Shown: positions 1 to 18,428 of the stretch, in pieces
Numbering within the stretch: the stretch's first letter is position 1
Layout of the letters: every line of letters begins with the position of its first letter
Assembly: GCA_017381935.1 (NCBI GenBank)
Contig: JAFOBG010000049.1
Location: 21,453-85,452, forward strand
Direction: 5' to 3'
Length of the DNA: 64,000 bases
Source: Alistipes sp.
Lineage (GTDB): Bacteria; Bacteroidota; Bacteroidia; Bacteroidales; Rikenellaceae
The notes under the pieces: generated by a model
What the model saw: the letters and a program-made list of their open reading frames with translations, nothing else
What the model was told of the DNA's origin: nothing
The model's database searches: none
Program-made: the position numbers and the translations under genes

Positions 1-800
1 AAGCAAACAGCAATATCATTGCCACCGGACAAGAGAATCCGGACCTATACGGCATGGGTACTACTGTTACTGCTATTATTCTCAACCAAACTTGCGCCAC
101 AATAGCATTTATTGGAGATAGTCGTATTTATCAATTGCGTGGCAAGAAAAAGGTATTCAGAACATTCGACCACTCTATGGTGTTTGAAATGGTAGCCAAT
201 GGCCTACTCACCGAAGAGCAGGCGCGTCTCTCTGCACAGTCTAACATCATACTAAAGGCGCTTGGTGTTACAGCAGAGATAGCTCCTGAGATCTACCAAT
301 TACCTTATCTTAAAGGTGATAGATTTGTGCTCTGTTCTGATGGCTTTTGGGGTGCAATGCCTGAAAAGGAGTTGTTATCCATCATTGGCAAGAGAAGAGA
401 GAAGTTAGCAGCGATTATAGAGCACACATCAAATCTTGTCGAGACCATCGGACATAATAAAGGTGGCTCCCACGACAACCTTACAGCTGCAATTATTGAC
501 GTGGAGTGCAACTCCCTAATGAAAGTAAAAATGAGCAAGACTGTTAAAATTATATTAGCCATTTTGGCTACGCTTCTAACTCTTAGCGTTGCGCTAAATA
601 TCTATTTTGCTGTAAAATCTTGCGACCTATGCCCTACTAAGGTTGTAGAAGAGGTTACTGCCGACGGCGTAGATTTAACAGATAAGGGTACTGAGGCTCA
701 GCCTACTTCTGAAGAGACTTCTGACAATCAGAAAGAGGAAAAGGCTGACAATAAAGAGCCAAATGGTGAGGGTGAAAAAAATCCTGAAATAATTAAATAA
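1..800 (+). CDS. PP2C-family Ser/Thr phosphatase, 5'-truncated by the window edge, with a C-terminal TM helix and an acidic tail
   Basis: The frame is open from nt 3 (…ANSNIIATGQENPDLYGMGTT). PP2C motifs are present: GMGTT, IGDSRIY, LCSDGFW, GGSHDNLTAAIIDV. These are followed by a hydrophobic helix (VKIILAILATLLTLSVALNIYFAV) and a tail rich in E, K and T. Confidence 0.9.
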   Translation, partial: ANSNIIATGQENPDLYGMGTTVTAIILNQTCATIAFIGDSRIYQLRGKKKVFRTFDHSMVFEMVANGLLTEEQARLSAQSNIILKALGVTAEIAPEIYQLPYLKGDRFVLCSDGFWGAMPEKELLSIIGKRREKLAAIIEHTSNLVETIGHNKGGSHDNLTAAIIDVECNSLMKVKMSKTVKIILAILATLLTLSVALNIYFAVKSCDLCPTKVVEEVTADGVDLTDKGTEAQPTSEETSDNQKEEKADNKEPNGEGEKNPEIIK

Positions 801-807
801 CAAAAAT

Positions 808-1395
808 ATGAAGAAATTTCTAACAATCGGACGTGATTCGCAATGCGATATTTGCATTGTTGACAACAGCGATGTAGTGAGCCGTCAGCATGCTATTCTT
901 GAAGTTGGTGGCGGTGGTAAGTACTACATTACCGACAAGAGTCGTAACGGAACTTATGTCAACGGAATTAAAATTGCGGCAAACGAGAGAGTTCCGGTAA
1001 CACGTAAAGATATTATCTCTCTTGCCCATGTACAAGAGCTTAATTGGGACCTTGTTCCAAAGGATAACTCTCTTACATACGCTATCGTGGCAGTTGGAGC
1101 ACTTGTTGTTTTAGCACTCGTTCTCTTCTTTACTCTCCGTCCATCTAATAGCATTAACAGCGACTTTGTTGGCGGTGCAGGTGGTGGCATACCAGAGGTA
1201 GATCAAACAGAGGAACTTGTTCCGGATGTTGTTGAAGAGCCTATAGCTCAACCAGAGGAGCAACCAGCAACTGAAGCTAAGCCTGAAGAGGTAAAACCTG
1301 AAGAGGCAAAGGCCGAGGCTAAAGCAGAGCAGGCAACAGCTAAGAAGGAGAGCAAGCCGGCTAAGAGTACCAAAGTTATCGATGCAATTTACTAA
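808..1395 (+). CDS. FHA domain protein, single-pass membrane, with an E/P/A/K-rich extracytoplasmic tail
   Basis: The N-terminal FHA signature is IGRDSQCDICI…VVSRQHAIL…DKSRNGTYVNG. The TM helix is YAIVAVGALVVLALVLFFTL. The tail is low-complexity (PEEQPATEAKPEEVKPEEAKAEAKAEQATAKKESKPAKS). Confidence 0.85.
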   Translation: MKKFLTIGRDSQCDICIVDNSDVVSRQHAILEVGGGGKYYITDKSRNGTYVNGIKIAANERVPVTRKDIISLAHVQELNWDLVPKDNSLTYAIVAVGALVVLALVLFFTLRPSNSINSDFVGGAGGGIPEVDQTEELVPDVVEEPIAQPEEQPATEAKPEEVKPEEAKAEAKAEQATAKKESKPAKSTKVIDAIY

Positions 1396-1417
1396 CCGAA
1401 ACTAAAAAATTACAAAT

Positions 1418-2863
1418 ATGAGACTTATTTCAATAGGCAGTTCAAGCCAAGCGCAGATCGTATTACACAGCCAGTATGTAAGTAGTTATCACGCTGAGAT
1501 TTTCCAGCTTGATAATGGTGATATGTTACTCGTTGATAAGGGTAGCCGCAACGGTACATTCGTAAATGGCGTTCAGATTACTCCTGAGAAGGAGGTTACT
1601 GTAACTCGTAACGACGCCATCCGTTTTGCAGACCAGAATCTTAATTGGTCAATGATCCCAGCTCTCTCTATTCCTGACAAGGAGAATATTAAGGTGCTTA
1701 AGAGCATCGGTTCTCACTATCTAAACAATATTCACCTTCAGGGCAATCAGATTAGTCGTTTCCACGCTACTGTAAAGCAGACTAAGGATGGTAAGTGGTA
1801 TATCTGCGACCATAGTTCAAACGGCACAACCGTCAATGGCGTACGCATCCCTAAGGATCAGTATGTACAGATTAAGTCTAAGGATGTTATCCAGTGTGCA
1901 GGTGTTACCATCCAGAACCCTGTAACAGGTGGTGGTAGCGGTTCACTTAAGTCAATTATTCTTGGTCTTTGCGCATGCGTAGCTGTAGCTCTTGTAGCTT
2001 GGGGCATCGCAGCTTTGGCAAGCGACTCTTGGCAGACTAAGATTTATAAGACCTACTCTCAATCTACAGTCGTTCTTGAGACTGGTTACTATCTTAAGAC
2101 CGATATTGAGTACGCAGGCACTAATCGTTGGGTTATCAATGATAAGGGTGAGTTAGAGCCATACAACGGTAAGAACCCTATGAAGAGCTGGGCTACCGGT
2201 TTCTTTATTAGCGATAATGGTATGCTTGTTACAAACCTCCATGTTGTAAAACCTTGGGAGTTTGGTGATCTTAAAGATCTGAATGAGGCTATTAAGAAGG
2301 ATGTTCTTGATGTTGCACGTAAACTCAGCATCGCTGTTGCTGCAAACGACATTAAGGCTGAGGGTGCTATTGCATACATCCTTGCAGTTCCTAACGGACA
2401 AATATTCGATAGCGCAAATGCTACAAAGATGCGTGTTGTAACATATAGCGAGAAGAAGGATGTTGACCTTGCTATCCTCCAGACAATGACTGCACAGCTC
2501 CCATTCGGTGCTACATTTATTCCTGTAAGCAATATCAGCAATGAGAATCTGCCTGTAGGTACCGACATCTTCACAATGGGCTTCCCTCACCTGTCAGCTC
2601 TTCAGGATGTACAGGCATTTGAGCGTTTCCAGGAGAAACCTCTCCAGGCAACCGGAGCTTCTGGTATTATTACAATGAATAACGACAAGTATAACTACAC
2701 TTTCGACGCTGCTTCTTACCACGGCGCAAGCGGTTCTCCTATCTTTGATAAGAAGGGTAACCTTATCGGTGTTGTTGCGCACGGCATTGCATCATCTCAG
2801 GGTTATAATGGTGGTGTAAAGGCGAAGTACATTACTCGTCTTATTCAATCAACTCAGGAATAA
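1418..2863 (+). CDS. Dual-FHA / TM / trypsin-like (S1, Trypsin_2-like) serine protease fusion
   Basis: FHA1 reads IGSSSQAQIVL…VSSYHAEI…GSRNGTFVNG. FHA2 reads IGSHYLNNIHL…ISRFHATV…HSSNGTTVNG. A GGGSGS linker and one TM helix (SIILGLCACVAVALVAWGIAALA, about nt 1949-2020) follow. The protease triad contexts are TNLHVV, DVDLAILQ and GASGSPIFDKKGNLIGVV. Confidence 0.85.
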   Translation: MRLISIGSSSQAQIVLHSQYVSSYHAEIFQLDNGDMLLVDKGSRNGTFVNGVQITPEKEVTVTRNDAIRFADQNLNWSMIPALSIPDKENIKVLKSIGSHYLNNIHLQGNQISRFHATVKQTKDGKWYICDHSSNGTTVNGVRIPKDQYVQIKSKDVIQCAGVTIQNPVTGGGSGSLKSIILGLCACVAVALVAWGIAALASDSWQTKIYKTYSQSTVVLETGYYLKTDIEYAGTNRWVINDKGELEPYNGKNPMKSWATGFFISDNGMLVTNLHVVKPWEFGDLKDLNEAIKKDVLDVARKLSIAVAANDIKAEGAIAYILAVPNGQIFDSANATKMRVVTYSEKKDVDLAILQTMTAQLPFGATFIPVSNISNENLPVGTDIFTMGFPHLSALQDVQAFERFQEKPLQATGASGIITMNNDKYNYTFDAASYHGASGSPIFDKKGNLIGVVAHGIASSQGYNGGVKAKYITRLIQSTQE

Positions 2864-2881
2864 TTATAACTACGAATTATT

Positions 2882-4381
2882 ATGGCTAAAAAGCATATAT
2901 TAATGTTTGCTGCGTCTCTGGCAATACTCTTTGCCGGAGAGGCAACAGCACAGAACATAGACCGTGTTGTTATGTCAAGCGGCTCTGAGTATGAGGGATA
3001 TATTGCAGAGCAGGTGCCAGGACAGTACATCACAATTAATAGTAATAAGGCTATTCTCTTTATAGACTCATCGTCTATTAAGAATATGGAGACTATCTCA
3101 TATCCTGTCAACCATTTGACAGAGCCTATGAAGAGTTGGGTAGCCAAGAATTTACCAGACAAGAGCGAAGTTGAGCTCGCCTCTATGCAGGCCGGCTCAA
3201 AAAGCTACAAAAACCTTCTTATTCTTGAAAAAGGTGTAAGAGTAAAGGTTCTACAACTTGCAAAAGATAGCTTTAAAGTAAATTGGAAAAATGTCGTAAA
3301 GACCAGCAAACTATCTACAGCAAACTCTAAACTTCATGAGGTTGTTACACTAAAGAATGGCAAGAGTTTGTCAGGTCATATCATTGAACAGATTATCGGT
3401 AAAGAGTTGCGTATCAAGCAGTTCAATGGCGATATCACCTCTATTGCATTTGCTGACATACTGAGCATCCGTACAGAACTCGCTCTTGAGGCCGAGAATC
3501 TTTGGGTACACGCTCCACTTTTGGATAAAGTAAAGCTTAATGACGGCACCGTTCTCGAAGGTTTTATCACTGCTCGTGTTATGGGTAGCCATCTCTACTT
3601 TATCACTCCGAAGAGCAACACTGAGCGTGAGATTAAGAGCGCAACCGTAGCAAAATATATGAAGGTTGTCAATCCTGACGCAATTATTGTTGAGGAGCCG
3701 GTTGTTGAGGAGCAGAAACCAGAGGTTGAGGAGGTTGATACTCGCAACTTCGAGTCAACTGAGCCTGAGATAGTTGAGGAGCAGACAATGACTCGTGCTG
3801 AGAAGAAGAAGGCTGCAAAGCAGGCAAAGGCTGAGGCTGAGGCAAGAGCAGAAGCTGAGGCTCAGATTAATGTTCAGCCTCAAGAGCAGGTTGAGCTTGA
3901 GCCTAAGGCGCAGTCGAAGAAGGAGTCTAAGAGCAATAAGGCTGAGGTTGAGGTAAAATCAGCGTTTGTGGTTCGTGTTAATGATATTCAAGTAACGCTT
4001 AGCGACTATCAGGAGATTGAGAAGGTTATCTCTAAATATTTCACATCTTCAAATAACACTATCGCTCTGACAACCCCAATTAAGGAGTGTGGCAAGGTTG
4101 GTCAGTCTATTCAGATTGAGATTCCTAACTCTTATGATATCTCAGATCTTAAGATTGTTCTTACCTCAGAGCGTAATCTGGGTATCCAGGTTACAGGTAG
4201 CGATAAGGATACTTGCCCAGCATTTACTCCAAAAGATGCCAATAAATCAGCTATCGGATATGGCACATCAACTTCAGGTAACAACAACATTATCACAGTT
4301 GTTCTTGAGACCCCTGGAGTATATGCGCTCTATCCTAAGACAAGCGATAATAAATATATCGCCTTTAAGATAACCGAATAA
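2882..4381 (+). CDS. Exported protein of unknown function with an internal E/A/K-rich coil
   Basis: The signal peptide is MAKKHILMFAASLAILFAGEATAQ. An N-terminal segment recurs three times (…YEGYIAEQVPGQYITI / LSGHIIEQIIGKELRIK / LEGFITARVMGSHLYFI). The charged low-complexity region covers about nt 3688-3957. I recognise no catalytic motif. Confidence 0.6.
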   Translation: MAKKHILMFAASLAILFAGEATAQNIDRVVMSSGSEYEGYIAEQVPGQYITINSNKAILFIDSSSIKNMETISYPVNHLTEPMKSWVAKNLPDKSEVELASMQAGSKSYKNLLILEKGVRVKVLQLAKDSFKVNWKNVVKTSKLSTANSKLHEVVTLKNGKSLSGHIIEQIIGKELRIKQFNGDITSIAFADILSIRTELALEAENLWVHAPLLDKVKLNDGTVLEGFITARVMGSHLYFITPKSNTEREIKSATVAKYMKVVNPDAIIVEEPVVEEQKPEVEEVDTRNFESTEPEIVEEQTMTRAEKKKAAKQAKAEAEARAEAEAQINVQPQEQVELEPKAQSKKESKSNKAEVEVKSAFVVRVNDIQVTLSDYQEIEKVISKYFTSSNNTIALTTPIKECGKVGQSIQIEIPNSYDISDLKIVLTSERNLGIQVTGSDKDTCPAFTPKDANKSAIGYGTSTSGNNNIITVVLETPGVYALYPKTSDNKYIAFKITE

Positions 4382-4397
4382 TACATTCAATCTACCT

Positions 4398-5504
4398 ATG
4401 AATATAATAAGAATTCAAGGCGATGCCGAAAAGCGAATGGGAGTTTACTACGAGTACGATCGTGATAGTGCTCCCATTGGCGAGGGCGGTATGGGTCGAA
4501 TCTTCCAGGGTTTCCGTGTTGACGAAATGTCTGGAGGATTCAGAATCCCTGTTGCAATCAAAGAGATTCATGAACATATCTCACGAGATCCTCAACTCAT
4601 TGAACGTGCAATGAGAGAGGCCTCTATTCAGATTGAACATGAGAATCTGCTCCGCATGTACGGCTTTGTGCCTAATGTAGAATACGATCCTCTCCATAAT
4701 ACCAATATCATGAGATATTATATGATTATGGAGCGTTTGGTAGGTGTCAACCTCGACCAGATTTTCAAGGGTATGATTTACGACCGTTCAAACATGCTCA
4801 TTCCACTTGCACAGGAGCTTTATCAGCTATATGCTTCTGATAGAGTGGAGTTTATCATACGAATAATGAAGGGCGTACTTGCCGGTATCATGGCTCTGCA
4901 CGAGCGCGGATATATCCACCGAGATATTGATCCAAGCAACATCATGATAACTATCGATAATAAAGTAAAGCTTATCGATTTTGGTGTTTGTAAACATATT
5001 GAGGCAATATCTGTTCAGGAGAAGTCGCTCACTCAGGCAGGTTCATTTATTGGTAAAGTAAATTATGCAGCACCTGAATTGGCTCTGGGCGATGTTTCAC
5101 ACCAAAATCGCACAACAGATATTTACGCACTCGGTATTCTGATGTATCAGCTCATGGTCGGTCGTCTGCCATTTGTTGGAACTAATCAGGAGGTTCTCAG
5201 TGCTCATGTATCAAAGAAGATGCCTCTTGGTGATATTGCAAACAAAGATTTACGCCGTATTATTGAGAAGGCTACACAAAAGAGACAAGAGAAGAGATAT
5301 GCATCTGCCGCTGAGCTGATTGTAGATCTTGAGCATATCAAGCGAACAAACTCTTCTGGAGGAAATATCTCTCACTCATCAAGCTCATTTACCGGAATAC
5401 AAGCAGAAAGTGAGAGTAGTACTGTTGTCTCTGTACTCATTTGGTTAGGTGTCATTATAGGAGGCCTGGCAACAGGTGTTCTATTAAAATTCCTATTAGG
5501 TTAA
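4398..5504 (+). CDS. Hanks-type Ser/Thr protein kinase, C-terminally tail-anchored, with no extracytoplasmic sensor domain
   Basis: Kinase motifs are the G-loop IGEGGMGRIF, VAIKEI (beta3 Lys), the catalytic loop HRDIDPSNIM, DFG (LIDFGVCK) and APE (YAAPELALG). A C-terminal TM helix (VVSVLIWLGVIIGGLATGVLLKFLLG) ends the protein. Confidence 0.9.
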   Translation: MNIIRIQGDAEKRMGVYYEYDRDSAPIGEGGMGRIFQGFRVDEMSGGFRIPVAIKEIHEHISRDPQLIERAMREASIQIEHENLLRMYGFVPNVEYDPLHNTNIMRYYMIMERLVGVNLDQIFKGMIYDRSNMLIPLAQELYQLYASDRVEFIIRIMKGVLAGIMALHERGYIHRDIDPSNIMITIDNKVKLIDFGVCKHIEAISVQEKSLTQAGSFIGKVNYAAPELALGDVSHQNRTTDIYALGILMYQLMVGRLPFVGTNQEVLSAHVSKKMPLGDIANKDLRRIIEKATQKRQEKRYASAAELIVDLEHIKRTNSSGGNISHSSSSFTGIQAESESSTVVSVLIWLGVIIGGLATGVLLKFLLG

Positions 5505-5507
5505 TAG

Positions 5508-7073
5508 ATGAAATATATTAGCAAAATCTTAGTTGTGTTGTGCCTGCTTACACCTCAAATATTGTCGGCACAAACACTATCCAATAAGGATAAGAGACAT
5601 ATCAATATGCGTCTGCTTAACCTTATTGAGCAATATGAAGGAAATGCGACAATGCATGACGATGGTGCTCGTTATGCATTCAAGCAACTATTCAAAAATC
5701 CGGCTGAGACACTTGTCTATAGCGACCTGCTTGACTACTCTGCCGGAGAGCTGATAACTGCCGATAAGTATATAGAGCAGATGGGCAGTAAAGAGAATAT
5801 ATCTATAAAGATAATGGATGTGAGCAAGTCTGACTACACATTCCAAGATGGATTGTGGCATGTAACTCTCTCATTTAACAAGTCTATTATCTATACAGAT
5901 AAAAATGGAGTTCTCTTTTCATCGCCTGAGTATTACAAGGCAAACCACTCTATCTATCTACATTGCTGCTACGACAGAAATGTTGACCGTTGTTACATAA
6001 CAAAGATTGATGGAGGCATTGAGTCTTCAACACCGCATCTTCCTAAGCATTTTACAGTCATCACCAGCACTACTGAGAACTTGGATAAGATTACAGATAA
6101 AGAGAATCCATTCCAATTCAACAGTTTCGATCAGACCTTTATTGATGATAAGTTGGTTACCTCATCGCATGAGGATACAATTATCGACAAAAAGATTATC
6201 GCTGCTAGTGATTGTTATGATTGGGTAAATATTGCCTATCACACAACTCATTGGCGTGCAAAGGTTCATGCAGGTATGTCAATCGGTTCTGCTCTCAAAG
6301 TAAAGACTGAAACTCCGCTGAATATCAACAACTCATCAGCATTTGAGTTTGGCGCCGAGATTGGCTATGCTATTCCAATGGGTCGCAAATCTACTCTCGG
6401 TATATACACCGGTGTAGGTATGTCATCTACAAAGTTAGAGTTGGGTCTGAAAGATATATCATACTCTTTCAGTACAATGGATAGCAAGGGCGTTAAGTAC
6501 ACTCGCTGCTATGAATTCTCTAAGATTACAGAGGGTGTATCATACACAGATCTTGTAGTACCATTCTATGTTGGATATGAGACAAATCTAATAAAAGGTC
6601 TATATGTTGGCCTATATGGTGGAGGTAAGCTCTATGTCAATGGACAGACTAAATATGCTCCATATCACATGACAGGTCGTGTATATGGACAATATGGCAC
6701 TCAAGAGGTTACAACAGGTAACGAGGCCTTTGAAGAGATTGACAAAGATGTAAATCAATTCTTAGCTGTCAATACCTCAATGCGTAATACTACTGATATC
6801 AGTATTACAGCAGGTGCAAGTTTGGCTTATGGATTTAAGTTGAAGGGGCAGAAGAACCGAATCATAGCATTTGCAAAATGCAGTTACGAGCTGGGACTTG
6901 CTAATATCTATGAGAATACCGGTCTGCCGCTATTCCATGAGACAACAAACAGACTTCCGATGGTCTATTCAGCCTCTCTAAATCAGAACATTGCAACTCG
7001 TTCACTATTGAGTGGACTTGCTTTCAAACGACAGATTTTATGGGTTGATTTAGGTGTAACCTTTAAATTTTAA
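5508..7073 (+). CDS. Putative outer-membrane beta-barrel protein with an N-terminal soluble domain
   Basis: The signal peptide is MKYISKILVVLCLLTPQILSAQ. The C-terminal half has alternating amphipathic strands rich in G, Y and S, and the protein ends in an aromatic residue (…VDLGVTFKF), as is typical of OM barrels. The family is not recognised. Confidence 0.5.
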   Translation: MKYISKILVVLCLLTPQILSAQTLSNKDKRHINMRLLNLIEQYEGNATMHDDGARYAFKQLFKNPAETLVYSDLLDYSAGELITADKYIEQMGSKENISIKIMDVSKSDYTFQDGLWHVTLSFNKSIIYTDKNGVLFSSPEYYKANHSIYLHCCYDRNVDRCYITKIDGGIESSTPHLPKHFTVITSTTENLDKITDKENPFQFNSFDQTFIDDKLVTSSHEDTIIDKKIIAASDCYDWVNIAYHTTHWRAKVHAGMSIGSALKVKTETPLNINNSSAFEFGAEIGYAIPMGRKSTLGIYTGVGMSSTKLELGLKDISYSFSTMDSKGVKYTRCYEFSKITEGVSYTDLVVPFYVGYETNLIKGLYVGLYGGGKLYVNGQTKYAPYHMTGRVYGQYGTQEVTTGNEAFEEIDKDVNQFLAVNTSMRNTTDISITAGASLAYGFKLKGQKNRIIAFAKCSYELGLANIYENTGLPLFHETTNRLPMVYSASLNQNIATRSLLSGLAFKRQILWVDLGVTFKF

Positions 7074-7078
7074 ACACG

Positions 7079-7954
7079 ATGCAGAATAATACACTGAAGA
7101 TCATTTTGATGATCGTTACATTTATAGCATGTGCGCTGATAGGTTATGTTATCAGCCCATTCCTCTTTAACACCTCTTCTACTATTGAGGTAAATGATGA
7201 TTTCCCTGTCGGCTCTGCTGTCAGTATGGGTGGCGGTGGCATATCATCTGATATTGAGCTTGGAGGCACAAGAAATAACAACCAACAAGTCTCCAAGCCT
7301 ACTCCTGAAGAGGTAGTAGCAGAGGCTGTTGCCGTAGTGGAGGCTGCTGCTGAGGTTGCTGCTGAGGCTGCTGCTGAGGTTGCTGCTGAGCAGCCTGCAG
7401 TTGAAGTTCCAGCACCTGCGCCAACCGAGGGTATGCCTGTAATTACAAGTACTGTAGTTCATGAGCGAGACTCAAGATATATTAAACTTGGACTTGCATT
7501 TACTGCAAAGGCTACAGCTCCAGAGGGCAATACACTTAGCTATCAGCTCTTTGAAATTGGTAGTACTGAGGCTAAATACACATCTGCCAATGGCCGTTTT
7601 AAGGAGGTACTCCCTGTTGATGGCGGTAAGTATCTGCTCAAGGTTGTCAATCAGACAACAGGCGCTACTGCTGAGAAGGAGGTTTCCGGTTTCCGTAAGA
7701 TTGACCGCTACTCAGCTGCAAAATTGCAGGAGCAACTCAATGCTGATACTCAAGAGCGTCTCTTCTACTTCCACTTCGACAAAGATAAGGTGAAGTTTGA
7801 TTGTGAGGGCCTTGAAGAGTGGGAACTCCCTAAGACTTTAGGTGCAATCTTGTCAGGTCGTGCTGCAGGTGGTTGGACAATTACCGTTGTAGGTACTCCA
7901 AAGTATGACAAATACAACCGAATTACTTATTTCAAAATTAATGTAACATACTAA
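7079..7954 (+). CDS. N-terminally anchored membrane protein with an A/E/V repeat linker and a C-terminal beta-rich domain
   Basis: The TM helix is LKIILMIVTFIACALIGYVI. The linker is EEVVAEAVAVVEAAAEVAAEAAAEVAAEQPAVEVPAPAP. The stop lies 1 nt before the next start codon. Confidence 0.6.
   Translation: MQNNTLKIILMIVTFIACALIGYVISPFLFNTSSTIEVNDDFPVGSAVSMGGGGISSDIELGGTRNNNQQVSKPTPEEVVAEAVAVVEAAAEVAAEAAAEVAAEQPAVEVPAPAPTEGMPVITSTVVHERDSRYIKLGLAFTAKATAPEGNTLSYQLFEIGSTEAKYTSANGRFKEVLPVDGGKYLLKVVNQTTGATAEKEVSGFRKIDRYSAAKLQEQLNADTQERLFYFHFDKDKVKFDCEGLEEWELPKTLGAILSGRAAGGWTITVVGTPKYDKYNRITYFKINVTY
7343..7390 (+). repeat. In-frame GCTGCTGAGG(T/C)T tandem repeat encoding the (AAEV/AAEA)n linker
   Basis: The read is gctgctgaggttgctgctgaggctgctgctgaggttgctgctgag. 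Confidence 0.8.
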
Positions 7955-11066: not shown

Positions 11067-11077
11067 TATAATAGATA

Positions 11078-11944
11078 ATGAAGAGACTTTTTGATATATC
11101 CAATCTTCGATGCTCCTACGACAAACACTATAAGGAGGGGGTATCAAAGGTTATTCTGGAGATAGATAAGTTAGTTATACCAAAAGGTAAGAAGGTGTTT
11201 ATCGTGGGTGAGTCGGGAATTGGTAAGAGTACCATTCTCGAAACCCTCGGTATGATGAACAACACCATTGTTACCAATGACAATACACGTTTCCACTTCT
11301 ACGAAGATGATAACACAATTGTAGATTTGGCAGCACTTTGGAAGTGTAGTGATAAGGAGCTATCGGAGTTTCGCCTAAAGCACTTCAGTTTTATCTTCCA
11401 GAGCACAAACCTTATGCGTAACTTTACAGCCTATGAGAATATAGCTTTGACACGTATGCTTCAACGCTACAGTCAGAGTTCATCATTTGAGAAGGCTAAT
11501 CAGGTTATGAAGGACCTCGGACTTGAGCATATAGACCAAACTCGTATGACTCAAGAGCTCTCAGGAGGTCAGCAACAGCGTTTGGCTTTTGCCCGTGCTA
11601 TTTTGCCTGACTTTACAGTTCTTTTTGGTGATGAGCCAACCGGAAACCTTGATAGCGACAATGCTGTTAAGGCAATGGAACTCCTCTCAAACAAGCTCTC
11701 ACAACTTGAGGGTAGTTCGGCAATCATCGTTTCGCACGATATGCATCTTGCAGTAACATTTGCCGACGTGATTATCAAGATTCGCAAAGAGGTGCGTAAA
11801 TCTAACTCTGTAAAGGATGAAGTAATCTATTACGGAGCGATTGATGATAGTTGCATCTTTACGCCTAATCAAAATGGAGAGTGGAGCAACGGCAGTGAGA
11901 GCTACTTGCCAGCAGATTTTGAGTTGTACTTAAAGAGATGGTAG
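11078..11944 (+). CDS. ABC transporter ATP-binding protein, MacB/LolD/FtsE-like
   Basis: Motifs present are Walker A GESGIGKST, Q-loop FIFQS, signature LSGGQQQR, Walker B VLFGDEPTGNLD and H-loop IIVSHD. The stop overlaps the next start (ATGGTAG). Confidence 0.9.
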   Translation: MKRLFDISNLRCSYDKHYKEGVSKVILEIDKLVIPKGKKVFIVGESGIGKSTILETLGMMNNTIVTNDNTRFHFYEDDNTIVDLAALWKCSDKELSEFRLKHFSFIFQSTNLMRNFTAYENIALTRMLQRYSQSSSFEKANQVMKDLGLEHIDQTRMTQELSGGQQQRLAFARAILPDFTVLFGDEPTGNLDSDNAVKAMELLSNKLSQLEGSSAIIVSHDMHLAVTFADVIIKIRKEVRKSNSVKDEVIYYGAIDDSCIFTPNQNGEWSNGSESYLPADFELYLKRW

Positions 11945-13524
11945 CAATGAGACTTAAAGATATTATATCAACCGACTATTTTAAACTCTTTGTCAAGCGC
12001 GAAGGAAAAGTAGTGCTTGGAAAGAACTACTCAAGCCTTTGGTTGCTATGTAGCGTCCTTACAACAACATTCTTGGCCATAGCATTCAGTAATGCAAGTC
12101 TTAACTACCTATCATACAAGATGAACGACCCGTTTATCAATTGGGTAGATATTAAGAATAACTTCGGAGAGAATGACTTTATAGGTTTTGAGCAGGCCCT
12201 ACGCGAAGAGCAGAACAAAGAGCGTTTCCACTTTAACGGTTACCAAACCGATAAATATTGGTACTCACTTTTTGGTACTGCGAATAACAATAGCCGTAAC
12301 CTTAAGTGTCGCTATTTCGCTGATATTCAGACACCTTTAGTACAGGCCATTATGGATAAAGACAATGTCGTATCAAAGGCTTGTATTGCAGCTGAGAATA
12401 TCAACAACCAATCATACGGTGTCATCATTACTCAAGATGCTCTTTGTAGTAAGTTGGGTTATGATATTGACAATATCCCGTCATATATCAACTACTTCAC
12501 ATATTGCAATCCTGATGCAAGTGAGTATGGTGTAGATATCTTAGGAGACGGCTTTGCCCTTGCCCCAATCCCTGTATTGGCTGTTGTAAAGCGTCTGCCA
12601 ACCAACATGGATATTATTAGTACCAAGTTCCTCTATCTTCAGAATCTGGGGTGGGCTCTTAATATGGACCGCATAGAGTACCACACATCTTTTATCTACT
12701 TCCTGCCTAACAAGGTAGATGTAGAGAAGTTTAAGACTGAGCTAGAAGGATTGACTGCAGAGAAGTGCACAACTTCATTCTTTACACTCTATGGACAGGA
12801 CCTACCAATGACTCGTATGATCCCATTCCGAGAGGGTACATTTATTCTCCTTCAGTTTGACTATCCTGATGAGGTCGATTTTGTAGCTACAAAAGAGATT
12901 AATCAGACTATCCTTGACAAATACAAGGAGGATGGTGTATATCGTATCTATGACTATGTTGAGAGCTTTACTACTGACGACCAGGACGACTATATCTCAG
13001 TACATTTTGGCAATCTGGATATGATTAGTAGTTTCCAAGAGTTTGCAAAAGAGAACTTCAAGATTGATATTGAGATGTCTCAAATCAATGCAAAGGAGAA
13101 CTTTAATGAGGTAAGCATTATGGCAAACATACTCTCATGGACTATGATTGTCTTTGCCATTGTATGTATTATTCTATTTATTATCAACTTGTTGCAGTCC
13201 TACTTCCAGAAGGTAAAGCGCAATTTGGGTACATTCAAGGCATTCGGAATCAGCAATATGGAGTTGATAAGTGTCTATGTACTGATTATGGTGGCAACTA
13301 TTTTGGTAGCTATCACTATCTCTCTTGGCGCATCCTATCTTATTGAGATTATACTGCCTCTTTTAGGCATTGTAAAGGATGCTTCATTTGGATACCTCTC
13401 TCTATGGAATGGAAAGACCTTAGTCTCTGTTCTTATCATCATAGCAGCCTCTGTTGCTACTGTATATATGGTAATGAGCAAACTTCTAAAGGCAACCCCT
13501 GGAGACCTAATTTATGACAGATAG
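11938..13524 (+). CDS. FtsX/MacB-type ABC permease with a large periplasmic domain
   Basis: One N-terminal TM helix (LWLLCSVLTTTFLAIAF) is followed by an extracytoplasmic region of about 330 aa. The C-terminal three-TM FtsX-like module contains …LGTFKAFGISNMELISVYVLIMVATILVAITISLG…. The 7-nt overlap with the ATPase gene indicates translational coupling. Confidence 0.8.
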   Translation: MVAMRLKDIISTDYFKLFVKREGKVVLGKNYSSLWLLCSVLTTTFLAIAFSNASLNYLSYKMNDPFINWVDIKNNFGENDFIGFEQALREEQNKERFHFNGYQTDKYWYSLFGTANNNSRNLKCRYFADIQTPLVQAIMDKDNVVSKACIAAENINNQSYGVIITQDALCSKLGYDIDNIPSYINYFTYCNPDASEYGVDILGDGFALAPIPVLAVVKRLPTNMDIISTKFLYLQNLGWALNMDRIEYHTSFIYFLPNKVDVEKFKTELEGLTAEKCTTSFFTLYGQDLPMTRMIPFREGTFILLQFDYPDEVDFVATKEINQTILDKYKEDGVYRIYDYVESFTTDDQDDYISVHFGNLDMISSFQEFAKENFKIDIEMSQINAKENFNEVSIMANILSWTMIVFAIVCIILFIINLLQSYFQKVKRNLGTFKAFGISNMELISVYVLIMVATILVAITISLGASYLIEIILPLLGIVKDASFGYLSLWNGKTLVSVLIIIAASVATVYMVMSKLLKATPGDLIYDR

Positions 13525-13542
13525 AAAAAAGGAGAATATAAT

Positions 13543-16500
13543 ATGAAAAAATTTCTATTAGCATTTTGCACCATTGCCCTTCTTGCCTCTTGCGACCAGG
13601 TGGCCCCAGAACAGAGTGTTCACCCAGGAACAGAGGGTATGGCTGTATCTATCAGAGAGGCAACAATCCCTCCAATGGGAAACCTAGGAGATAAGAGTGA
13701 GTATATACAATTCACTGTATCTTCAGAGGTTGCATGGAAGATAGAGAGAAATGGTGCTGATTGGCTTTTGTTTGATTTTAACGGCAAACCAAGTTCTACT
13801 CTCAAGGGCGCTGCCGGAACTACAAATGTAGCAATGTATGCCCCTGTAAATACAGAGTCTGAATCATACCGTACAGCAAAGGTTGATTTTATTTTTAGTG
13901 ATGCAAGTAAGAGCGTAGCCACTATAGATGTATATCAGGAGCGTCCTTATTTGAGAATTAAGGCTGCTGATCAGACCCTTGAAGAGCCTGAAAGCATACA
14001 CAACTTCCTCTTCCATTGGGACGAGAGCGAGGATCAAGTTACAGATGCTGAGCAGAGTATTACCATCTATTCTAATACTCCATGGAAGATTTCTCTTGGA
14101 GAGAATGCTCGTACATACCTCTGTCAAGAGGGTCTTGAGCCATTTGATGGCAAAGCAACTGTTAATGCAATTGGTCAGAACGGTATTCTTATCGGTCCAA
14201 CTGATAATCAATGGCTTGTTTGTTCTCAGATAGAGGGTGATACAACAGGTGATTTAAGAGCCGGCGATAATGGCGTGAATGTAAAGTTCAACCCACTACG
14301 ATACAATACAACTCGCAATGATCGTACACTTAACATTGTTGTTTCCGGTCAGAACAAATTGTGGCAAACAATGTACCTAAATTTCGTTCAGGAGAATTTG
14401 ATATTTGTTGCCACTTTGGATGGAGCAGATGTTGCAGACAAAGATGCACAGGATAATATTCCTACTGTTATCAAATATCCTGCATGTAACACCACAACCA
14501 TTGCTCAGCATCAATTTACAGTTGAGTCTGAGCTTGATTGGGTTCTTAATGACAATAGTTCGACATGGGTTGTAACAACTCCTAAGGAGGGATACGGCTC
14601 AGGTGTTGATGGTCAAGGCCTTGTAACTCCTGGTACTATCAACCTTATTGAAAATGATGCTAATCCGGGTTCAGAGGTGCGTGAGGAGATTCTCACCTTT
14701 ATAAGTCAGGCCGATGTTAACCCTAAACCAAGCCTATATATCAAGGTGGAGCAAGAGGGTTATATCTTTGAACTTAATCCATCGACTCTAAATATTAGCA
14801 ATAACGATTTGACTGAAAGAGAGATACAATTTATGTCATCAGGTCATTGGGAGGTAGATAAGGCCTCTGTTCCTGAGTGGATTACTGTATCAGGCGGAGA
14901 GGGTATTGGTCTTGAATATGGTGCACAGGGTGTAGAGCGTTTTAATATTAACGCAAACTGCCAGAACCTACTACTTACCGATCGCTCTCAGAATATCGTC
15001 GTGAAAAGTACTCAGCCAGGTAACAACATGGCTAAGAGTATCTCCGTAACTCAAGATAAGTATATTTTCGATGCTACATCGTTAGACTCCGACCTTCAGT
15101 TCGGAACTGACGAGAGTGTTAATGCACCTGCCACCCTCGATATTCACAGTTCAGGTGATTGGGAGATTAGTATCAAGTATCCAGATAGCTACAACCAAAA
15201 CTTGGATTGGTTGGAATGCGAGAAATATTCCGGAAACGGTAATGCTAAAATTACATATTGGGCAAAGAGCGTAAACGGAGATATCGACAATGACCGTATG
15301 GCGACTATCGTCGTTACAAGTAGCACCCACAAAAACGCAGGCGTTCCTATTGACGATATAGAAATCAATATCAAACAACGTAAGTTCACATTCAACATTA
15401 CAGCAAACTCCCCAATCTCATATTATGCAGTAGATAGCAGTTCAAACAATGTCGCAATTGACTGTTCTGTTGCATGGCAGGTTGATGCTTCAGAGAGTTG
15501 GGTAAAACTAAATAGAGTTTCTGGAACAAGTAACACCAAGTCTCTATCTGTAACTGTTGAGAACAACCTCTCACTCTCTCCTCGTCAGGCTACCGTTACT
15601 ATTAGCAATATAGATCCGGCCTATGGTGAGCATACAAAGAGCTTTACCATTGAGCAGAAGGGATTTGTATTCAATGTTAGCGGCACTACTGAATACAACA
15701 ACCTAAGCCCTATAAACGCTACAGGCAACTACGAGGTGCAAGTTACCTGCTCAGGAGCATGGAGTGTCAAGCCTGCTGAGGCATGGGTTACAGCCTCTCC
15801 AAGTAGCGGTAATGGAGGCAATCCGGAGGCTGCAAAGAGTGTACACTTTACTGTAGCAGACAACCCAAATCTCTCTACTCGTTCAACAAGCGTTACAATT
15901 AGCAGTAATCTCGACTCTCAATATTCTAAGAGTGTAACATTCTCTCAGAATGCATTTGAGTTTAACAACACTCCAAAGAGTTTCTCTTTTGATGCTATCA
16001 ACTCAAAGAGCGAAAAGATTGATATCGTATGTAGCGGTAATTGGGTACTTGATGGTTATGAGAGTTGGATGGGAGCTGACAAGACAAGCGGCTCTGGTAA
16101 CACTACAATCACTATCACTCCTACAACCAATACCAATAAGGGTACAGGTCGTATGAATAGAGTGCTTAAGGTTGTAAGTTCTCTCCACAAAAACATCGGT
16201 TGGTCTGATATGGCCTCTGTAACAAAGGTTATCAATATTAGCCAAAACGGTTTGCAGTTTGATGATACTCCTGTAACTGTTCCTCCATTCAAGGCCATCT
16301 CTCCAAGCAGCTATACTGCATCAATTGGTCTATGTGATGGTGGTTGGGAGATAAAGTCTGTACCTAGTTGGGTTACAGTAACTCCTACTTCAGGCACAAG
16401 CTACCAGAGTATCATGATTACTCCAAGCGAGAATACTAGTATGCAGATGCGTGAAGCAACTATTGAGGTAGTAAGTAAATTAAACTCTTCTCTTAAGAAG

Positions 16501-16863
16501 GTTATCTCTCTGTCTCAGGCTGCATTTGTATTCGACACAAAGGATGCATCTGTAGAGTTTGAAGCAACAGACACCGCTGCAAATGCAAAGAAGGTAACTG
16601 TAGATGCCTCTTCTGCAGGTTGGACTTTAGTTTGTACCCAGACATGGCTTACAGTATCACCTACTGTATCATTTGACGGTGCAAAGACTGAAATTACCAT
16701 TACCCCTACAGAAAATAAGGATACTAAGTCCCGTACTGCAACAATAACCATTACAAGTGATAAGAACTCATCACTTACAAAGACTATTACAGTAACTCAG
16801 AAGGCTGCAACACCTCCACCAACTGAGGATGATGACAAGAAACCTTCTACATCCTCTTTGTAA
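13543..16863 (+). CDS. Surface lipoprotein with about 10 tandem BACON-like repeats
   Basis: The lipobox is LLASC. A motif of about 90-100 aa repeats as W-x(5-9)-W(I/V/L)x(V/L)-x(2-4)-SG(S/N/T)G-…-V-x-(N/D)-…-R-x-A-x-(I/V)-x-(I/V)-x-S. Examples are AWSVKPAEAWVTASPSSGNGG…RSTSVTISS and GWEIKSVPSWVTVTPTSGTS…REATIEVVS. Confidence 0.75.
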   Translation: MKKFLLAFCTIALLASCDQVAPEQSVHPGTEGMAVSIREATIPPMGNLGDKSEYIQFTVSSEVAWKIERNGADWLLFDFNGKPSSTLKGAAGTTNVAMYAPVNTESESYRTAKVDFIFSDASKSVATIDVYQERPYLRIKAADQTLEEPESIHNFLFHWDESEDQVTDAEQSITIYSNTPWKISLGENARTYLCQEGLEPFDGKATVNAIGQNGILIGPTDNQWLVCSQIEGDTTGDLRAGDNGVNVKFNPLRYNTTRNDRTLNIVVSGQNKLWQTMYLNFVQENLIFVATLDGADVADKDAQDNIPTVIKYPACNTTTIAQHQFTVESELDWVLNDNSSTWVVTTPKEGYGSGVDGQGLVTPGTINLIENDANPGSEVREEILTFISQADVNPKPSLYIKVEQEGYIFELNPSTLNISNNDLTEREIQFMSSGHWEVDKASVPEWITVSGGEGIGLEYGAQGVERFNINANCQNLLLTDRSQNIVVKSTQPGNNMAKSISVTQDKYIFDATSLDSDLQFGTDESVNAPATLDIHSSGDWEISIKYPDSYNQNLDWLECEKYSGNGNAKITYWAKSVNGDIDNDRMATIVVTSSTHKNAGVPIDDIEINIKQRKFTFNITANSPISYYAVDSSSNNVAIDCSVAWQVDASESWVKLNRVSGTSNTKSLSVTVENNLSLSPRQATVTISNIDPAYGEHTKSFTIEQKGFVFNVSGTTEYNNLSPINATGNYEVQVTCSGAWSVKPAEAWVTASPSSGNGGNPEAAKSVHFTVADNPNLSTRSTSVTISSNLDSQYSKSVTFSQNAFEFNNTPKSFSFDAINSKSEKIDIVCSGNWVLDGYESWMGADKTSGSGNTTITITPTTNTNKGTGRMNRVLKVVSSLHKNIGWSDMASVTKVINISQNGLQFDDTPVTVPPFKAISPSSYTASIGLCDGGWEIKSVPSWVTVTPTSGTSYQSIMITPSENTSMQMREATIEVVSKLNSSLKKVISLSQAAFVFDTKDASVEFEATDTAANAKKVTVDASSAGWTLVCTQTWLTVSPTVSFDGAKTEITITPTENKDTKSRTATITITSDKNSSLTKTITVTQKAATPPPTEDDDKKPSTSSL

Positions 16864-16898
16864 AAGCATTAACAATAAACCTCAAACAATAAAAAGTT

Positions 16899-17930
16899 AT
16901 GAAGACCTTTTATATTGGCAGAAATCCTCAGAATGACATAGTTATTGCTGAGATGTCGGTCTCCGACCGTCATGGAGAGATTACCATTGAGGACAATGGT
17001 CAGATTGTATATACTGACCATAGTTCTAATGGAACATACATCAATGGCATCTTCTTACAACACTCTTCGCAGATTGTCTCTGTAGGAGACCATATTGTAT
17101 TCCCTGGTGGTATTGAGTTTAATTGGGCTATTCTTTCGCCGTACATTATTCCTCAAGGCTGTTTTGAAACCACACAGCCTACAACCTCTGTTCCTTACAA
17201 TGGAAACTCTGGTTTTGTTCCACCTCTGGTGAATAATCAGCCACAAGACTATAGCTCATATCCGGCCAACGATTCTACTGAGAGGGTTACTCTTAACTTT
17301 TCACTCACCTTTAAAGAGGGTCTAAGTAGCGGACTAAAGAACGCATTGAGTCTGCTTGCAATCCTACTGTTAGCCATATTAACATGTTGGATTCCATATA
17401 TCAACCTTGGAGTACTTATCGCAATTTCAACCCTGCCTGATCAATGGAGCCGAGGTGAGGTTGTCAGTCCTCTCTCTATTTTCAAGAGTTGCTATCGTCG
17501 CAATATGGGTACATATCTGTTACTACTTGCCTTCCTTGGCTTTGGAGTACTTCTCGCCACTTTATCAGGCGTCATTCCAGGTATAGTACTCTCTTTTGCA
17601 TGGTCGCTTGCAACACTATTTGTCGTAGTTGAAGGGAAAAATCCTATAGAGGCTCTTAATGTCTCTAATAATTGTACCTACGGTAGCAAGTGGACTATCT
17701 TTGCTGTTCTACTTGTCTTTGGTCTATGCGCAGGCATTGTTTCGGGAATTGTAGGAGGTTTGTCAGCACTTATCATCACAAGTTTAGCAGATAGTGGTGA
17801 GGCTGCTGTAGTTATTGTCTCTATACTATTTGGCCTGATTATGTTGGCACTTAGCGCTGTTATTTACTCTATCAGCATAGGTATCTCAGGCTCTATATGG
17901 AAACAACTTAAACAAAACGCAAACAACTAA
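16899..17930 (+). CDS. FHA domain fused to a polytopic (about 5-6 TM) membrane domain
   Basis: The FHA signature is IGRNPQNDIVI…VSDRHGEI…HSSNGTYING. A Pro-rich linker and several long hydrophobic helices follow (LLAILLLAILTCWIPYINLGVLIAI; YLLLLAFLGFGVLLATLSGVIPGIVLSFAW; and others). Confidence 0.8.
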   Translation: MKTFYIGRNPQNDIVIAEMSVSDRHGEITIEDNGQIVYTDHSSNGTYINGIFLQHSSQIVSVGDHIVFPGGIEFNWAILSPYIIPQGCFETTQPTTSVPYNGNSGFVPPLVNNQPQDYSSYPANDSTERVTLNFSLTFKEGLSSGLKNALSLLAILLLAILTCWIPYINLGVLIAISTLPDQWSRGEVVSPLSIFKSCYRRNMGTYLLLLAFLGFGVLLATLSGVIPGIVLSFAWSLATLFVVVEGKNPIEALNVSNNCTYGSKWTIFAVLLVFGLCAGIVSGIVGGLSALIITSLADSGEAAVVIVSILFGLIMLALSAVIYSISIGISGSIWKQLKQNANN

Positions 17931-17957
17931 TATTAACACATTAAAAAACTTATAGCT

Positions 17958-18428
17958 ATGAAAAAACTGATTATTTTGGCACTTGTTGCAGTTCTCATGT
18001 CATCTTGTACTATGCACAAATCTACAGTGAGAAACACAACTGTTAAGCACCCAACTATCGAGTCAACAACAATGGCGACACTTAATATCAGCAAGAAACG
18101 TATCAACTACACATACGTTCCTGAGCGTACAGACTCTCGTCGTCTTCCTGAGGCTCGTCTTATCCAGAATGCAATCTTCAAGGCTCTTGCAGCAAATGGT
18201 AATGCAGATGTTTTGGTACAGGTTAACACATATACTACAGTCCACAAGGGCTTGTGTGGTCGTCGTATCAAGAGTATCTCTGTAAGTGGTTATCCTGCAT
18301 ACTACACTAACTTCCGTGAGCCTTCAAAGAGCGATTTGGAGAATGTATATATCTTCAACCAATCTGGCCATGCTACAGATTGCTGTGAGGGTGATGGTTC
18401 TGTTATTAATCGCATCTTCAAGCGCTAA
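17958..18428 (+). CDS. Small lipoprotein of unknown function, last gene of the operon
   Basis: The lipobox is LMSSC. The gene is followed by a strong hairpin terminator. Confidence 0.6.
   Translation: MKKLIILALVAVLMSSCTMHKSTVRNTTVKHPTIESTTMATLNISKKRINYTYVPERTDSRRLPEARLIQNAIFKALAANGNADVLVQVNTYTTVHKGLCGRRIKSISVSGYPAYYTNFREPSKSDLENVYIFNQSGHATDCCEGDGSVINRIFKR

Follow-up and report, generated by a model that had tools for sequence, protein, structure and literature searches.

A conserved operon of gut and rumen Bacteroidales encoding a putative threonine-phosphorylation envelope system related to type VI secretion

We analyzed a 64,000-nucleotide stretch of Alistipes sp. DNA (contig JAFOBG010000049.1, positions 21,453 to 85,452; hereafter "the window"), which opens with an operon joining PP2C phosphatase, Hanks-type kinase and FHA-domain genes to genes for envelope proteins. 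The operon is real and is widely conserved in gut and rumen Bacteroidales. Its genes are not one indivisible unit, as the signaling and protease core and a block containing a TssR-like protein and an ATP-binding cassette (ABC) transporter are separable modules. We regard it as an even bet that the genes specify a self-contained threonine-phosphorylation system that spans the envelope, a relative of the phosphorylation pathway known from type VI secretion systems (T6SSs), one that is independent of the T6SS and couples envelope sensing to FHA-gated periplasmic proteolysis. Part of that reading, and weighed evenly with it as a whole, is that the system would be an evolutionary relative of accessory and membrane parts of the Bacteroidota T6SS. 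Judged from sequence, the unusual parts of such a phospho-threonine-gated, T6SS-related envelope system would be an FHA-gated periplasmic protease and a TssR paralogue associated with a MacB-type transporter.

Almost nothing is known of how the Bacteroidota T6SS is regulated after translation: a 2026 review covering T6SS accessory genes gives PpkA, PppA, Fha and TagQRST for Proteobacteria only and, for Bacteroidota, only TagA, TagB and TagC, whose function is unknown. The kinase/PP2C/FHA core, which shares an operon with ClpV, TssB, TssC and Hcp genes in several gut families, is a concrete candidate for such regulation. The origin of the membrane complex of the Bacteroidota-type T6SS (T6SSiii) is an open question, and a large TssR-paralogue family embedded in a block of ABC, FtsX and barrel genes offers a direct lead. 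An FHA-FHA-transmembrane-serine protease protein is an unusual design that, if true, would be a new means of conveying the phosphorylation state of the cytoplasm across the inner membrane. Alistipes, Barnesiella, Odoribacter and rumen Bacteroidales commonly carry the system, which includes a fast-evolving 10x BACON surface protein and may therefore bear on surface remodeling, adhesion or interbacterial contact in the gut.

Organization of the operon

Fourteen open reading frames (ORFs; g1 to g14) lie on the + strand across positions 1-18428 of the window, with successive gaps of 7, 22, 18, 16, 3, 5, 1, 24, 11, -7, 18, 35 and 27 nt. In the list below, TM denotes transmembrane helices, SPI a signal peptidase I signal, and PEAK-rich a segment rich in Pro, Glu, Ala and Lys.

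1..800, + strand: g1, PP2C phosphatase, 5'-truncated (Pfam PP2C/SpoIIE/PP2C_2)
808..1395, + strand: g2, FHA - TM - PEAK-rich periplasmic tail (FHA E 1.1e-18; TM 92-110)
1418..2863, + strand: g3, cytoplasmic FHA-FHA - TM - periplasmic trypsin-like serine protease (FHA x2 E 2e-34; Trypsin_2 E 1.9e-16; TM 180-198)
2882..4381, + strand: g4, exported protein with SPI signal (no Pfam, NCBIfam or PDB relative)
4398..5504, + strand: g5, tail-anchored Hanks-type kinase paralogue (Pkinase E 7.8e-34; TM 343-361)
5508..7073, + strand: g6, exported protein with C-terminal outer-membrane beta-barrel (weak OMP_b-brl match, E 7.3e-5; SPI signal; C terminus ...LGVTFKF)
7079..7954, + strand: g7, protein anchored at its N terminus, with a linker rich in Gly and A/E and a periplasmic domain at the C terminus (TM 8-26; no Pfam match)
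7956..8585, + strand: g8, exported 209-aa periplasmic protein (signal peptide; no Pfam or PDB relative)
8610..11066, + strand: g9, exported TssR-like protein with an N-terminal barrel, a vWA domain with a motif like the metal ion-dependent adhesion site (MIDAS), and a C-terminal domain (Pfam)
11078..11944, + strand: g10, ABC ATPase of the MacB/LolD/BceA/FtsE (type VII ABC) group (ABC_tran E 8.2e-23)
11938..13524, + strand: g11, FtsX-type permease (FtsX E 2.3e-6; TM 32-50, 398-416, 443-461, 489-517)
13543..16863, + strand: g12, lipoprotein with 10 BACON repeats, putative surface protein (BACON E 1.8e-43; lipobox LLASC)
16899..17930, + strand: g13, FHA + 5-TM membrane protein (FHA E 1.3e-14; TMs 150-322)
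17958..18428, + strand: g14, small lipoprotein, variably present (lipobox LMSSC; homologues in 7 loci)
18447-18480, + strand: bidirectional intrinsic terminator hairpin closing the operon (stem AATAGAGAGTTCAC/GTGAACTCTCTATT, 14-15 bp, then the T run TTTGTTCTTT)

This layout agrees with an initial annotation made from the window alone, which had described 14 tightly packed same-strand genes (gaps of 1-35 nt, one 7-nt overlap) that end at a hairpin and run off the 5' edge. The hairpin was the sole strong terminator candidate when positions 1-19000 were scanned. The 5' edge does cut the operon, and its start was read from six contigs of the same species (loci L001-L006) found by exact look-up of the g3 protein. 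Upstream of the window's edge, these contigs add an FHA protein (241 aa), a second tail-anchored Hanks-type kinase (326 aa) and the N terminus of the PP2C, with the spacing of this trio being +34, -14 and +7 nt. The FHA gene is the first of the operon and is preceded by a 485-nt AT-rich gap. Within it are a terminator-like hairpin belonging to the lipoprotein gene before it and a -7 motif of the Bacteroides type, TACATTTG. The whole unit is a 16-gene, roughly 20.4-kb operon amid housekeeping DNA, with a terminator and a promoter region of its own.

Pfam searches confirmed every domain named in the initial annotation, and its export, anchor and lipoprotein calls are backed by hydrophobicity and N termini. 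No DNA-binding protein was found in Pfam scans of the 16 operon products, and a scan against NCBIfam returned nothing specific.

Conservation and modular structure

We compared about 110 related loci, of which 39 were genome loci anchored on g3 and 75 were metagenome loci anchored on g9, using tblastn matrices and all-against-all clustering of 1476 ORFs from 99 loci. The g3-anchored loci come nearly all from Bacteroidales (Alistipes, Barnesiella, Odoribacter, Tannerellaceae, Muribaculaceae, Bacteroidaceae, Cryptobacteroides, Prevotella, Paraprevotella and the isolate "Bacteroides ilei"); two bins titled Eggerthellaceae and Methanomethylophilaceae presumably reflect mis-binning. The full gene order of the window is kept, at 30-80% protein identity, in at least 20 independent species or metagenome loci, and colinearity across families at 25-80% identity led us to reject a chance juxtaposition. 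At one Alistipes sp. locus, full colinearity is retained amid quite different flanking genes, which argues for a self-contained unit. The co-conservation of a PP2C/Hanks-kinase/multi-FHA core with envelope proteins, which the initial annotation had left to a gene-neighborhood comparison, is thus upheld.

Two modules emerged from the comparison. Module 1, the signaling core, consists of the FHA, kinase(s), PP2C, FHA-TM and FHA-FHA-TM-protease genes together with the g4 family, and was found wherever a g3-anchored locus has enough sequence. Module 2, the envelope block, consists of the barrel g6, g7, g8, g9 and the ABC and FtsX genes. The order g6-(g7)-g8-g9-g10-g11 recurs at practically all g9 loci that have enough flank, even where g9 identity is as low as 23-27%. 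The gene for a BACON-repeat or related giant protein lies beside module 2 at most loci, either upstream or downstream, and an FHA-polytopic protein is frequent with it. Fifty module 2 loci have at least 5 kb of upstream sequence; using a crude ORF caller, we found a kinase in 43 of these and a PP2C in 35. Neither gene was called at four of the 50, two of which are cut just inside a kinase fragment (L081, L109) and two of which lie at contig ends (L103, L104). PP2C was called alone at L046, L074 and L094, with the L046 kinase found separately.

About half of the g3-anchored loci have no module 2 within 10 kb (class B). In class B, the genes after g3 encode an exported WG-repeat protein, a small barrel of the OMP_b-brl_2 family, a lipoprotein, a peptidase of the S41 family and then a g4-family member. 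The g6 barrel is related to the small class B barrel (hhalign against the OMP_b-brl_2 family: probability 89.6, E 1.9e-6).

Signaling core

In full, g1 is 358 aa long (L002:8307-9383). It keeps the RxENQD, DGMGG, GDSR, SDG and DN motifs, and its single TM helix (residues 183-201 of the visible part) is followed by an acidic low-complexity extracytoplasmic tail. The upstream kinase (326 aa) carries the motifs GQGALG, VAIK, HKDIKPSN, DLG and APE. The second kinase, g5, has an atypical catalytic loop, HRDIDPSN, with Asp in place of Lys. This change is conserved at the orthologous position in both locus classes (L007-L118), while the kinase beside PP2C keeps H[RK]DIKPSN, suggesting a pair made of a kinase and a pseudokinase-like partner. 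In both kinases the C terminus is a lone TM helix, and neither has an extracytoplasmic domain. The kinases and PP2C are cytoplasmic enzymes, each tethered by one helix and without a sensor domain.

The operon encodes five FHA domains on four proteins, three of which are membrane proteins. In these three the FHA domain faces the cytoplasm, and the remainder of the protein is a PEAK-rich tail (g2, with the canonical FHA motif GR...SRQH...NGT), a serine protease (g3) or a 5-TM bundle (g13). Given tethered enzymes that lack sensors, membrane FHA proteins that face the cytoplasm, and no DNA-binding protein, this arrangement is consistent with a circuit local to the envelope.

The marker gene of the conserved core is g3, for which we found 978 homologues. 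Its catalytic triad (H275/D350/S438) is invariant across 21 aligned homologues and is kept in 47 of 48 locus copies. Both the S-x-x-H and the N-G motif of its FHA domains are invariant. The fastest-evolving operon member is g4 (18-40% identity), which is present in both locus classes; its family (c9) was found at 46 loci, including directly upstream of ClpV at the T6SS-linked loci described below. The g4 sequence contains three repeats of the DGxxYEGxI type, and it also has a PEAK-rich linker and a C terminus that is beta-rich. An AlphaFold model of g4 built without an alignment was unusable (predicted local distance difference test [pLDDT] score, 36.6), and a word-indexed homologue search returned 6 relatives only. 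Because it is the only exported protein common to all classes and evolves the fastest, g4 is the first candidate for a substrate or co-sensor.

Low-complexity segments rich in Pro, Glu, Ala and Lys, on the predicted periplasmic side, occur in g4 (2882-4381), g2 (808-1395), g7 (7079-7954) and g1 (1-800). These may be spacers across the periplasm or the peptidoglycan.

A TssR-like protein with a MacB-type transporter

The g9 protein (818 aa) matches the Pfam families TssR_VWA (PF20782; 42.4 bits) and TssR_C (PF20781; 29.3 bits), both above the cut-off of 25.7. The TssR N-domain (PF17643) scores 22.8 bits in g9, below that cut-off, and is recorded for most homologues; the generic VWA match scores 22.2 bits. 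A 55%-identical homologue is named [quoted passage not shown] at NCBI. TssR is an outer-membrane lipoprotein of TssNQOPR, the membrane complex of the Bacteroidota-specific T6SSiii (Bongiovanni et al. 2024, PMC10781749). Since g9 carries TssR domains, a T6SS-family gene is present in the operon. The initial annotation had correctly identified an exported vWA protein here; it missed the specific likeness to TssR, and its statement that the locus held no T6SS gene was wrong.

In g9, the MIDAS-like residues D352-G-T354-S-S356 ... D467 are invariant among 40 sequences. An AlphaFold (AF2) model (pLDDT 83) places the vWA fold between two domains without solved relatives. A Foldseek search of the PDB with this model found vWA-domain matches only (integrin beta, ITIH1, SpaC, BatB); no TssR structure is available. 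Sequence and profile searches of the PDB with g9, g4, g8 and g11 gave nothing significant. A g9 profile searched against 1.84 billion representatives matched 2149 clusters (50% identity) at E<=1e-3 and 695 at E<=1e-30, which makes this a large family. No bona fide TssR is named among the distant matches to the profile; those listed, down to E 1e-87, are unnamed family members. The TssR-like gene is duplicated in tandem at L103, L104, L108, L060, L066, L067 and L080, and in some of the second copies the vWA domain is missing (family c31, ~490 aa).

Around g9, g8 is always directly upstream (63 loci), and the g7 family (64 loci) is often duplicated. A Pfam scan of 58 members of the g4, g7 and g8 families found no T6SS family; the only recurrent domain across the pooled families was Zn_ribbon_8, in 6 of the 58 (HypA in an equal number). 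The initial call of a MacB/LolD-like ATPase with an FtsX-type permease was borne out. The best PDB matches of g10 are MacB (4.4e-30), LolD, BceA and FtsE (E range 4e-30 to 1e-20), and its Walker A, signature, Walker B and H-loop motifs are intact. The g11 gene overlaps g10 by 7 nt and follows it at every locus with enough flank, and its product has a periplasmic domain of about 350 aa between TM1 and TM2; no Pfam match to MacB_PCD was found in g11. The pair resembles the type VII ABC systems (MacB, LolCDE, FtsEX, BceAB) in its MacB-type nucleotide-binding domain and in its four-TM FtsX topology with a periplasmic domain between TM1 and TM2. It differs from them in that the operon has no MacA adaptor, EnvC amidase activator or BceS histidine kinase, and in that the constant partner is the TssR-like protein.

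At the most divergent loci (L103, L104, L106, L108), a gene for a glucosaminidase-LysM peptidoglycan hydrolase follows the FtsX-type permease, and at L106, the only locus whose coordinates were read, the two genes overlap (hydrolase at 11666-12670). This pairing recalls hydrolases controlled by FtsEX. The window has a similar hydrolase gene 8 kb away on the opposite strand (26898-27986), beside an M23 peptidase (28573-30288), probably by coincidence.

By ancestry, the closest known system is the T6SSiii membrane complex, through TssR, with one of its five components detectable. The N-terminal barrel, vWA and C-terminal domains of g9 stand in TssR order, with g9, like tssR in tssQOPR, closing a series of small periplasmic proteins that are anchored or exported (PMC10781749). 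In contrast to TssR, which is a lipoprotein with a signal peptidase II signal, g9 starts with MKKIFFTTLLSLAAIIAATAQP, an SPI signal without a lipobox Cys, and the family consensus is alike. The topologies of g7, g8 and g13 are compatible with TssN, TssO, TssP and TssQ, although none of the three matches a Pfam T6SS family. Moreover, the partners of g9 are an ABC/FtsX pair and a barrel, which are absent from that complex, and no baseplate, sheath or tube accompanies window-type loci, that is, loci organized as in the window (probed with ClpV, TssB, TssC and Hcp).

One explanation of these likenesses is that the block is a stand-alone relative or precursor of the T6SSiii membrane complex, in which g13 would correspond to TssN, g7 and g8 to TssO/P/Q and g9 to TssR, together forming a tail-less, ABC-driven trans-envelope conduit. 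The three TssR domains in order, the contiguous g7-(g7)-g8-g9 run and the fit of the topologies to the published set (5-TM with a cytoplasmic domain, single-pass periplasmic proteins, TssR) all speak for it. Furthermore, the authors of the membrane-complex study looked for its components outside T6SS loci, in search of a co-opted ancestor, and found no complete set (PMC10781749). We nevertheless think this explanation quite improbable, because g7, g8 and g13 show no similarity to Pfam T6SS families even with 58 family members scanned, because g9 is not a lipoprotein, and because a match in topology is a weak criterion.

Linkage of the core to T6SS genes

Six class B loci, from six species, continue past the g4-family gene on the same strand with genes for an AAA+ protein of the ClpB/ClpV type, a protein of 148 aa in the position of TssB, TssC and Hcp/TssD. 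These loci are L022 and those of Tannerellaceae (L015, L016), Muribaculaceae (L018), Bacteroidaceae (L019) and Cryptobacteroides (L029). Upstream of ClpV, the core orthologues run in the order FHA, kinase, kinase, PP2C, FHA-TM, FHA-FHA-protease, WG-repeat protein, outer-membrane protein, S41 and g4 (e.g., L029:746-15835), and the gap between g4 and ClpV is 11-20 nt in the two loci read (L019, L029). TssC of these loci matches PF17541 at E 1e-129. Hcp/TssD (PF17642; E 1e-29 and 1e-32) was found where the flank reaches, with two in L029 and one region in L018. ClpV, TssB and TssC are 63-78% identical across the four Bacteroidales families. None of the six loci has the TssR-like/ABC block in its flank; WG-repeat, small outer-membrane protein and S41 protease genes are there instead. 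The core-ClpV-TssB-TssC-Hcp arrangement may be a T6SSiii architecture new to the literature searched.

A neighbor-joining tree of g3, midpoint-rooted and without bootstrap support, groups the T6SS-linked loci in a single clade that is sister to the large window-type clade, with other class B loci more basal. At one T6SS-linked Tannerellaceae locus (L016:2141-4923), a TPR-histidine kinase and a LytTR response regulator are encoded directly upstream of the FHA gene.

The window-type loci gave the opposite result. With the L029 proteins as tblastn queries, neither the 64-kb window nor any window-type locus gave a match to ClpV, TssB, TssC or Hcp, and none was found in the 8.6 kb upstream. No T6SS genes lie within 10 kb of about 60 window-type loci. 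The initial annotation would have been contradicted if orthologous loci always sat beside a known machine such as the T6SS; six sister-clade loci do so, and the window-type loci do not. TssC, whether used as one sequence or as an alignment, gave no match in viral contigs scanned for complete T6SSiii loci.

By logic and protein families, the closest known system is TagQRST-PpkA-PppA-Fha1 of Pseudomonas, the P. aeruginosa H1-T6SS threonine-phosphorylation pathway that had been proposed as a precedent. Both have a Hanks-type kinase, a PP2C (motifs intact) and an FHA reader. Both also pair a MacB/LolD-type ATPase with an FtsX/LolE-type permease (TagT/TagS, COG1136/COG4591), a match at the level of family only, and have outer-membrane and periplasmic accessory proteins. 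The kinase/PP2C/FHA core of the sister clade shares an operon with T6SS genes, as the Pseudomonas pathway does. A periplasmic vWA domain is likewise common to both; in PpkA it is fused to the kinase, whereas in the operon it is on a separate protein, g9, and both kinases are tail-anchored and without a periplasmic domain.

The other differences are larger. The operon has five FHA domains, and its FHA-FHA-TM-serine protease and g4 family have no Pseudomonas counterpart. None of the 16 proteins has the Pfam domain of TagR (FGE/sulfatase-modifying type), and g12 and g14 are unrelated by domain content to the outer-membrane lipoprotein TagQ. The window and window-type loci hold no T6SS, and both the phylum and the T6SS type are different. 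Membership in the T6SS threonine-phosphorylation pathway was rejected on three counts: location in a T6SS cluster, a periplasmic domain on the kinase, and TagR/TagQ. The precedent thus stands for logic and families, and fails for these defining features.

A Bacteroidales counterpart of TagQRST-PpkA-PppA-Fha1 could also act at a distance, controlling a T6SSiii elsewhere in the genome, with the TssR-like protein docking onto or substituting in its membrane complex. This would make sense of the core being in one operon with ClpV, TssB, TssC and Hcp in six loci, of the TssR likeness of g9, and of the parallel between the ABC/FtsX pair and TagT/TagS. A further point in its favor is that TssR was unidentifiable in 31% of T6SSiii loci (PMC10781749). 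Such remote control is unlikely in our view, given that T6SS genes are missing within 10 kb of the roughly 60 window-type loci and from the window, that the T6SS-linked loci are themselves without the TssR-like/ABC block in their flanks, and that the T6SS was found in 0 of 9 cultured Alistipes genomes (Coyne 2016).

Proposed circuit

In the circuit that we favor, the self-contained phosphorylation system, an envelope arm (the BACON protein, barrel, g8, TssR-like vWA protein and g7) would be mechanically coupled to the FtsX/ABC transducer, as in TagQRST, and would set the activity of the membrane-anchored kinase(s) against that of PP2C. The resulting phospho-threonine marks would be read by the five cytoplasmic FHA domains. 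FHA binding would switch the periplasmic protease of g3, with the reader inside and the enzyme outside, and the protease would then cut an envelope target, for which g4 and the BACON protein are candidates. The presumed role of the core in the sister clade is to gate T6SSiii; in window-type loci, the T6SS would have been replaced by the TssR-like/ABC block, or the core would never have been joined to a T6SS.

The last step of this circuit would resemble LapD/LapG/LapA of Pseudomonas fluorescens, an inside-out control of a surface adhesin that uses a c-di-GMP signal and a type I secretion system ABC transporter. By analogy, both systems would combine a cytoplasmic receptor with a periplasmic protease, and both loci encode a giant repeat surface protein, an outer-membrane pore and an ABC transporter. 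The components are not homologous, however. In the operon, the reader and the protease are one polypeptide, the mark would be phospho-threonine rather than c-di-GMP, and the ABC transporter is of type VII (MacB-like).

The giant partner itself varies between loci. The 10 BACON repeats of g12 were counted with an iterated self-profile, in line with the earlier estimate of about 10, and the protein is fast-evolving. The rumen-type giant partner (BACON repeats or family c14; L106:5-2920, L068:3580-6759) ends in a C-terminal sorting domain of the type IX secretion system (T9SS), with a Por_Secre_tail score of 25.9-26.4 bits, just below the Pfam cut-off. Going by these predicted signals, the giant partner is the same across loci and the route that targets it to the surface differs (lipoprotein signal versus T9SS sorting domain). 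A link to a polysaccharide utilization locus or to the T9SS was considered; no SusC/D or T9SS core genes were found in the annotated flanks, the T9SS hint being this sorting signal, at some loci only. Equivalents of g13 were found at L046, L048 (FHA-DUF805), L051 and L069 and as family c19.

The Lap comparison invites a simpler role for the whole operon, in which the ABC transporter, the TssR-like protein and the barrel place or hold the BACON lipoprotein and the FHA-gated protease frees it, making the operon a machine for assembly, retention or release. The giant-protein gene does lie beside the block at most loci, MacB/LolD-type ATPases include the lipoprotein extractor LolCDE, and g3 unites a cytoplasmic reader with a periplasmic protease. 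We consider this role rather unlikely: the T9SS sorting domain on the rumen-type protein implies that the surface is reached by another route, and the protease/g4 core is also found without any BACON protein.

Several observations weigh against the self-contained phosphorylation system. The canonical Arg after the conserved Gly is found in only 26 of 48 locus copies of the first g3 FHA domain, and is absent from the window protein; in the second FHA domain it is found in 0 of 48. The Lys-to-Asp change makes g5 a possible pseudokinase or scaffold partner whose catalysis may be impaired. Some class B loci ("B-other") have the core with no T6SS and no TssR-like block inside 10 kb, so that the partner module may not define the function. 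The direction of signaling and the protease substrate are suggested by topology only. As g4, g7 and g8 have no detectable relatives, the physical coupling of the envelope arm is tentative. Finally, the T6SS-free status of window-type species was read from the 64-kb window and locus flanks, and a T6SSiii may lie elsewhere in their genomes.

A bolder combination of these ideas, which we hold to be doubtful, would have g6-g13 as a free-standing relative, possibly an ancestor, of the T6SSiii membrane complex (a tail-less trans-envelope machine with a TssR paralogue at its center, drawing power from a MacB-type ABC transporter and with phospho-threonine as its gate) and, at the same time, the core as an unrecognized post-translational control of T6SSiii where it is fused to ClpV-TssBC-Hcp.

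Comparison with defense systems

The operon shares with the TerY-P triad the joint presence of a vWA domain, a PP2C and a kinase, and TerY-P had been named as a second precedent. This precedent fails, because the vWA domain belongs to an exported, TssR-like protein and not to a cytoplasmic TerY; in addition, the triad leaves 13 of the 16 genes unexplained. A PADLOC search gave generic matches to kinase, trypsin and ABC domains and nothing for g9, g4 or the FHA proteins; whether its library contains TerY models was not checked. On the basis of these generic-only matches and of the signal peptide and TssR domains of g9, we rejected TerY-P or another known defense system as an identity for the operon.

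A phospho-gated conflict or defense system of a new kind, directed against phages or competitors and using the protease as effector, was also considered. In its favor, the operon is patchily distributed across Bacteroidales, and g4 and g12 are fast-evolving; the kinase and protease domains match PADLOC models generically. We find it very improbable. The PADLOC matches are at the level of domains, with none for g9, g4 or the FHA proteins, and the protease is periplasmic, not cytoplasmic. The surroundings are housekeeping genes without mobile-element or defense-island neighbors, and the deep clades of the g3 tree track locus architecture, which suggests long-term retention.

No description of the operon's architecture was found in the literature searched, in agreement with the view of the initial annotation that no system of such composition had been characterized, and an eLife survey of vWA-centered conflict systems does not describe it.

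Genomic setting

Farther upstream of the operon are metK, an alpha-galactosidase gene, rimM, rpsP and nadE. Past the terminator are genes for aldose epimerase, S1/P1 nucleases, purine nucleoside phosphorylase, uracil-DNA glycosylase and DPP-IV, as well as aroA/aroC and recQ. The S1/P1 nucleases are two tandem paralogues (258 and 282 aa; window 20965-22606, - strand) that lie beside the purine nucleoside phosphorylase and uracil-DNA glycosylase genes.

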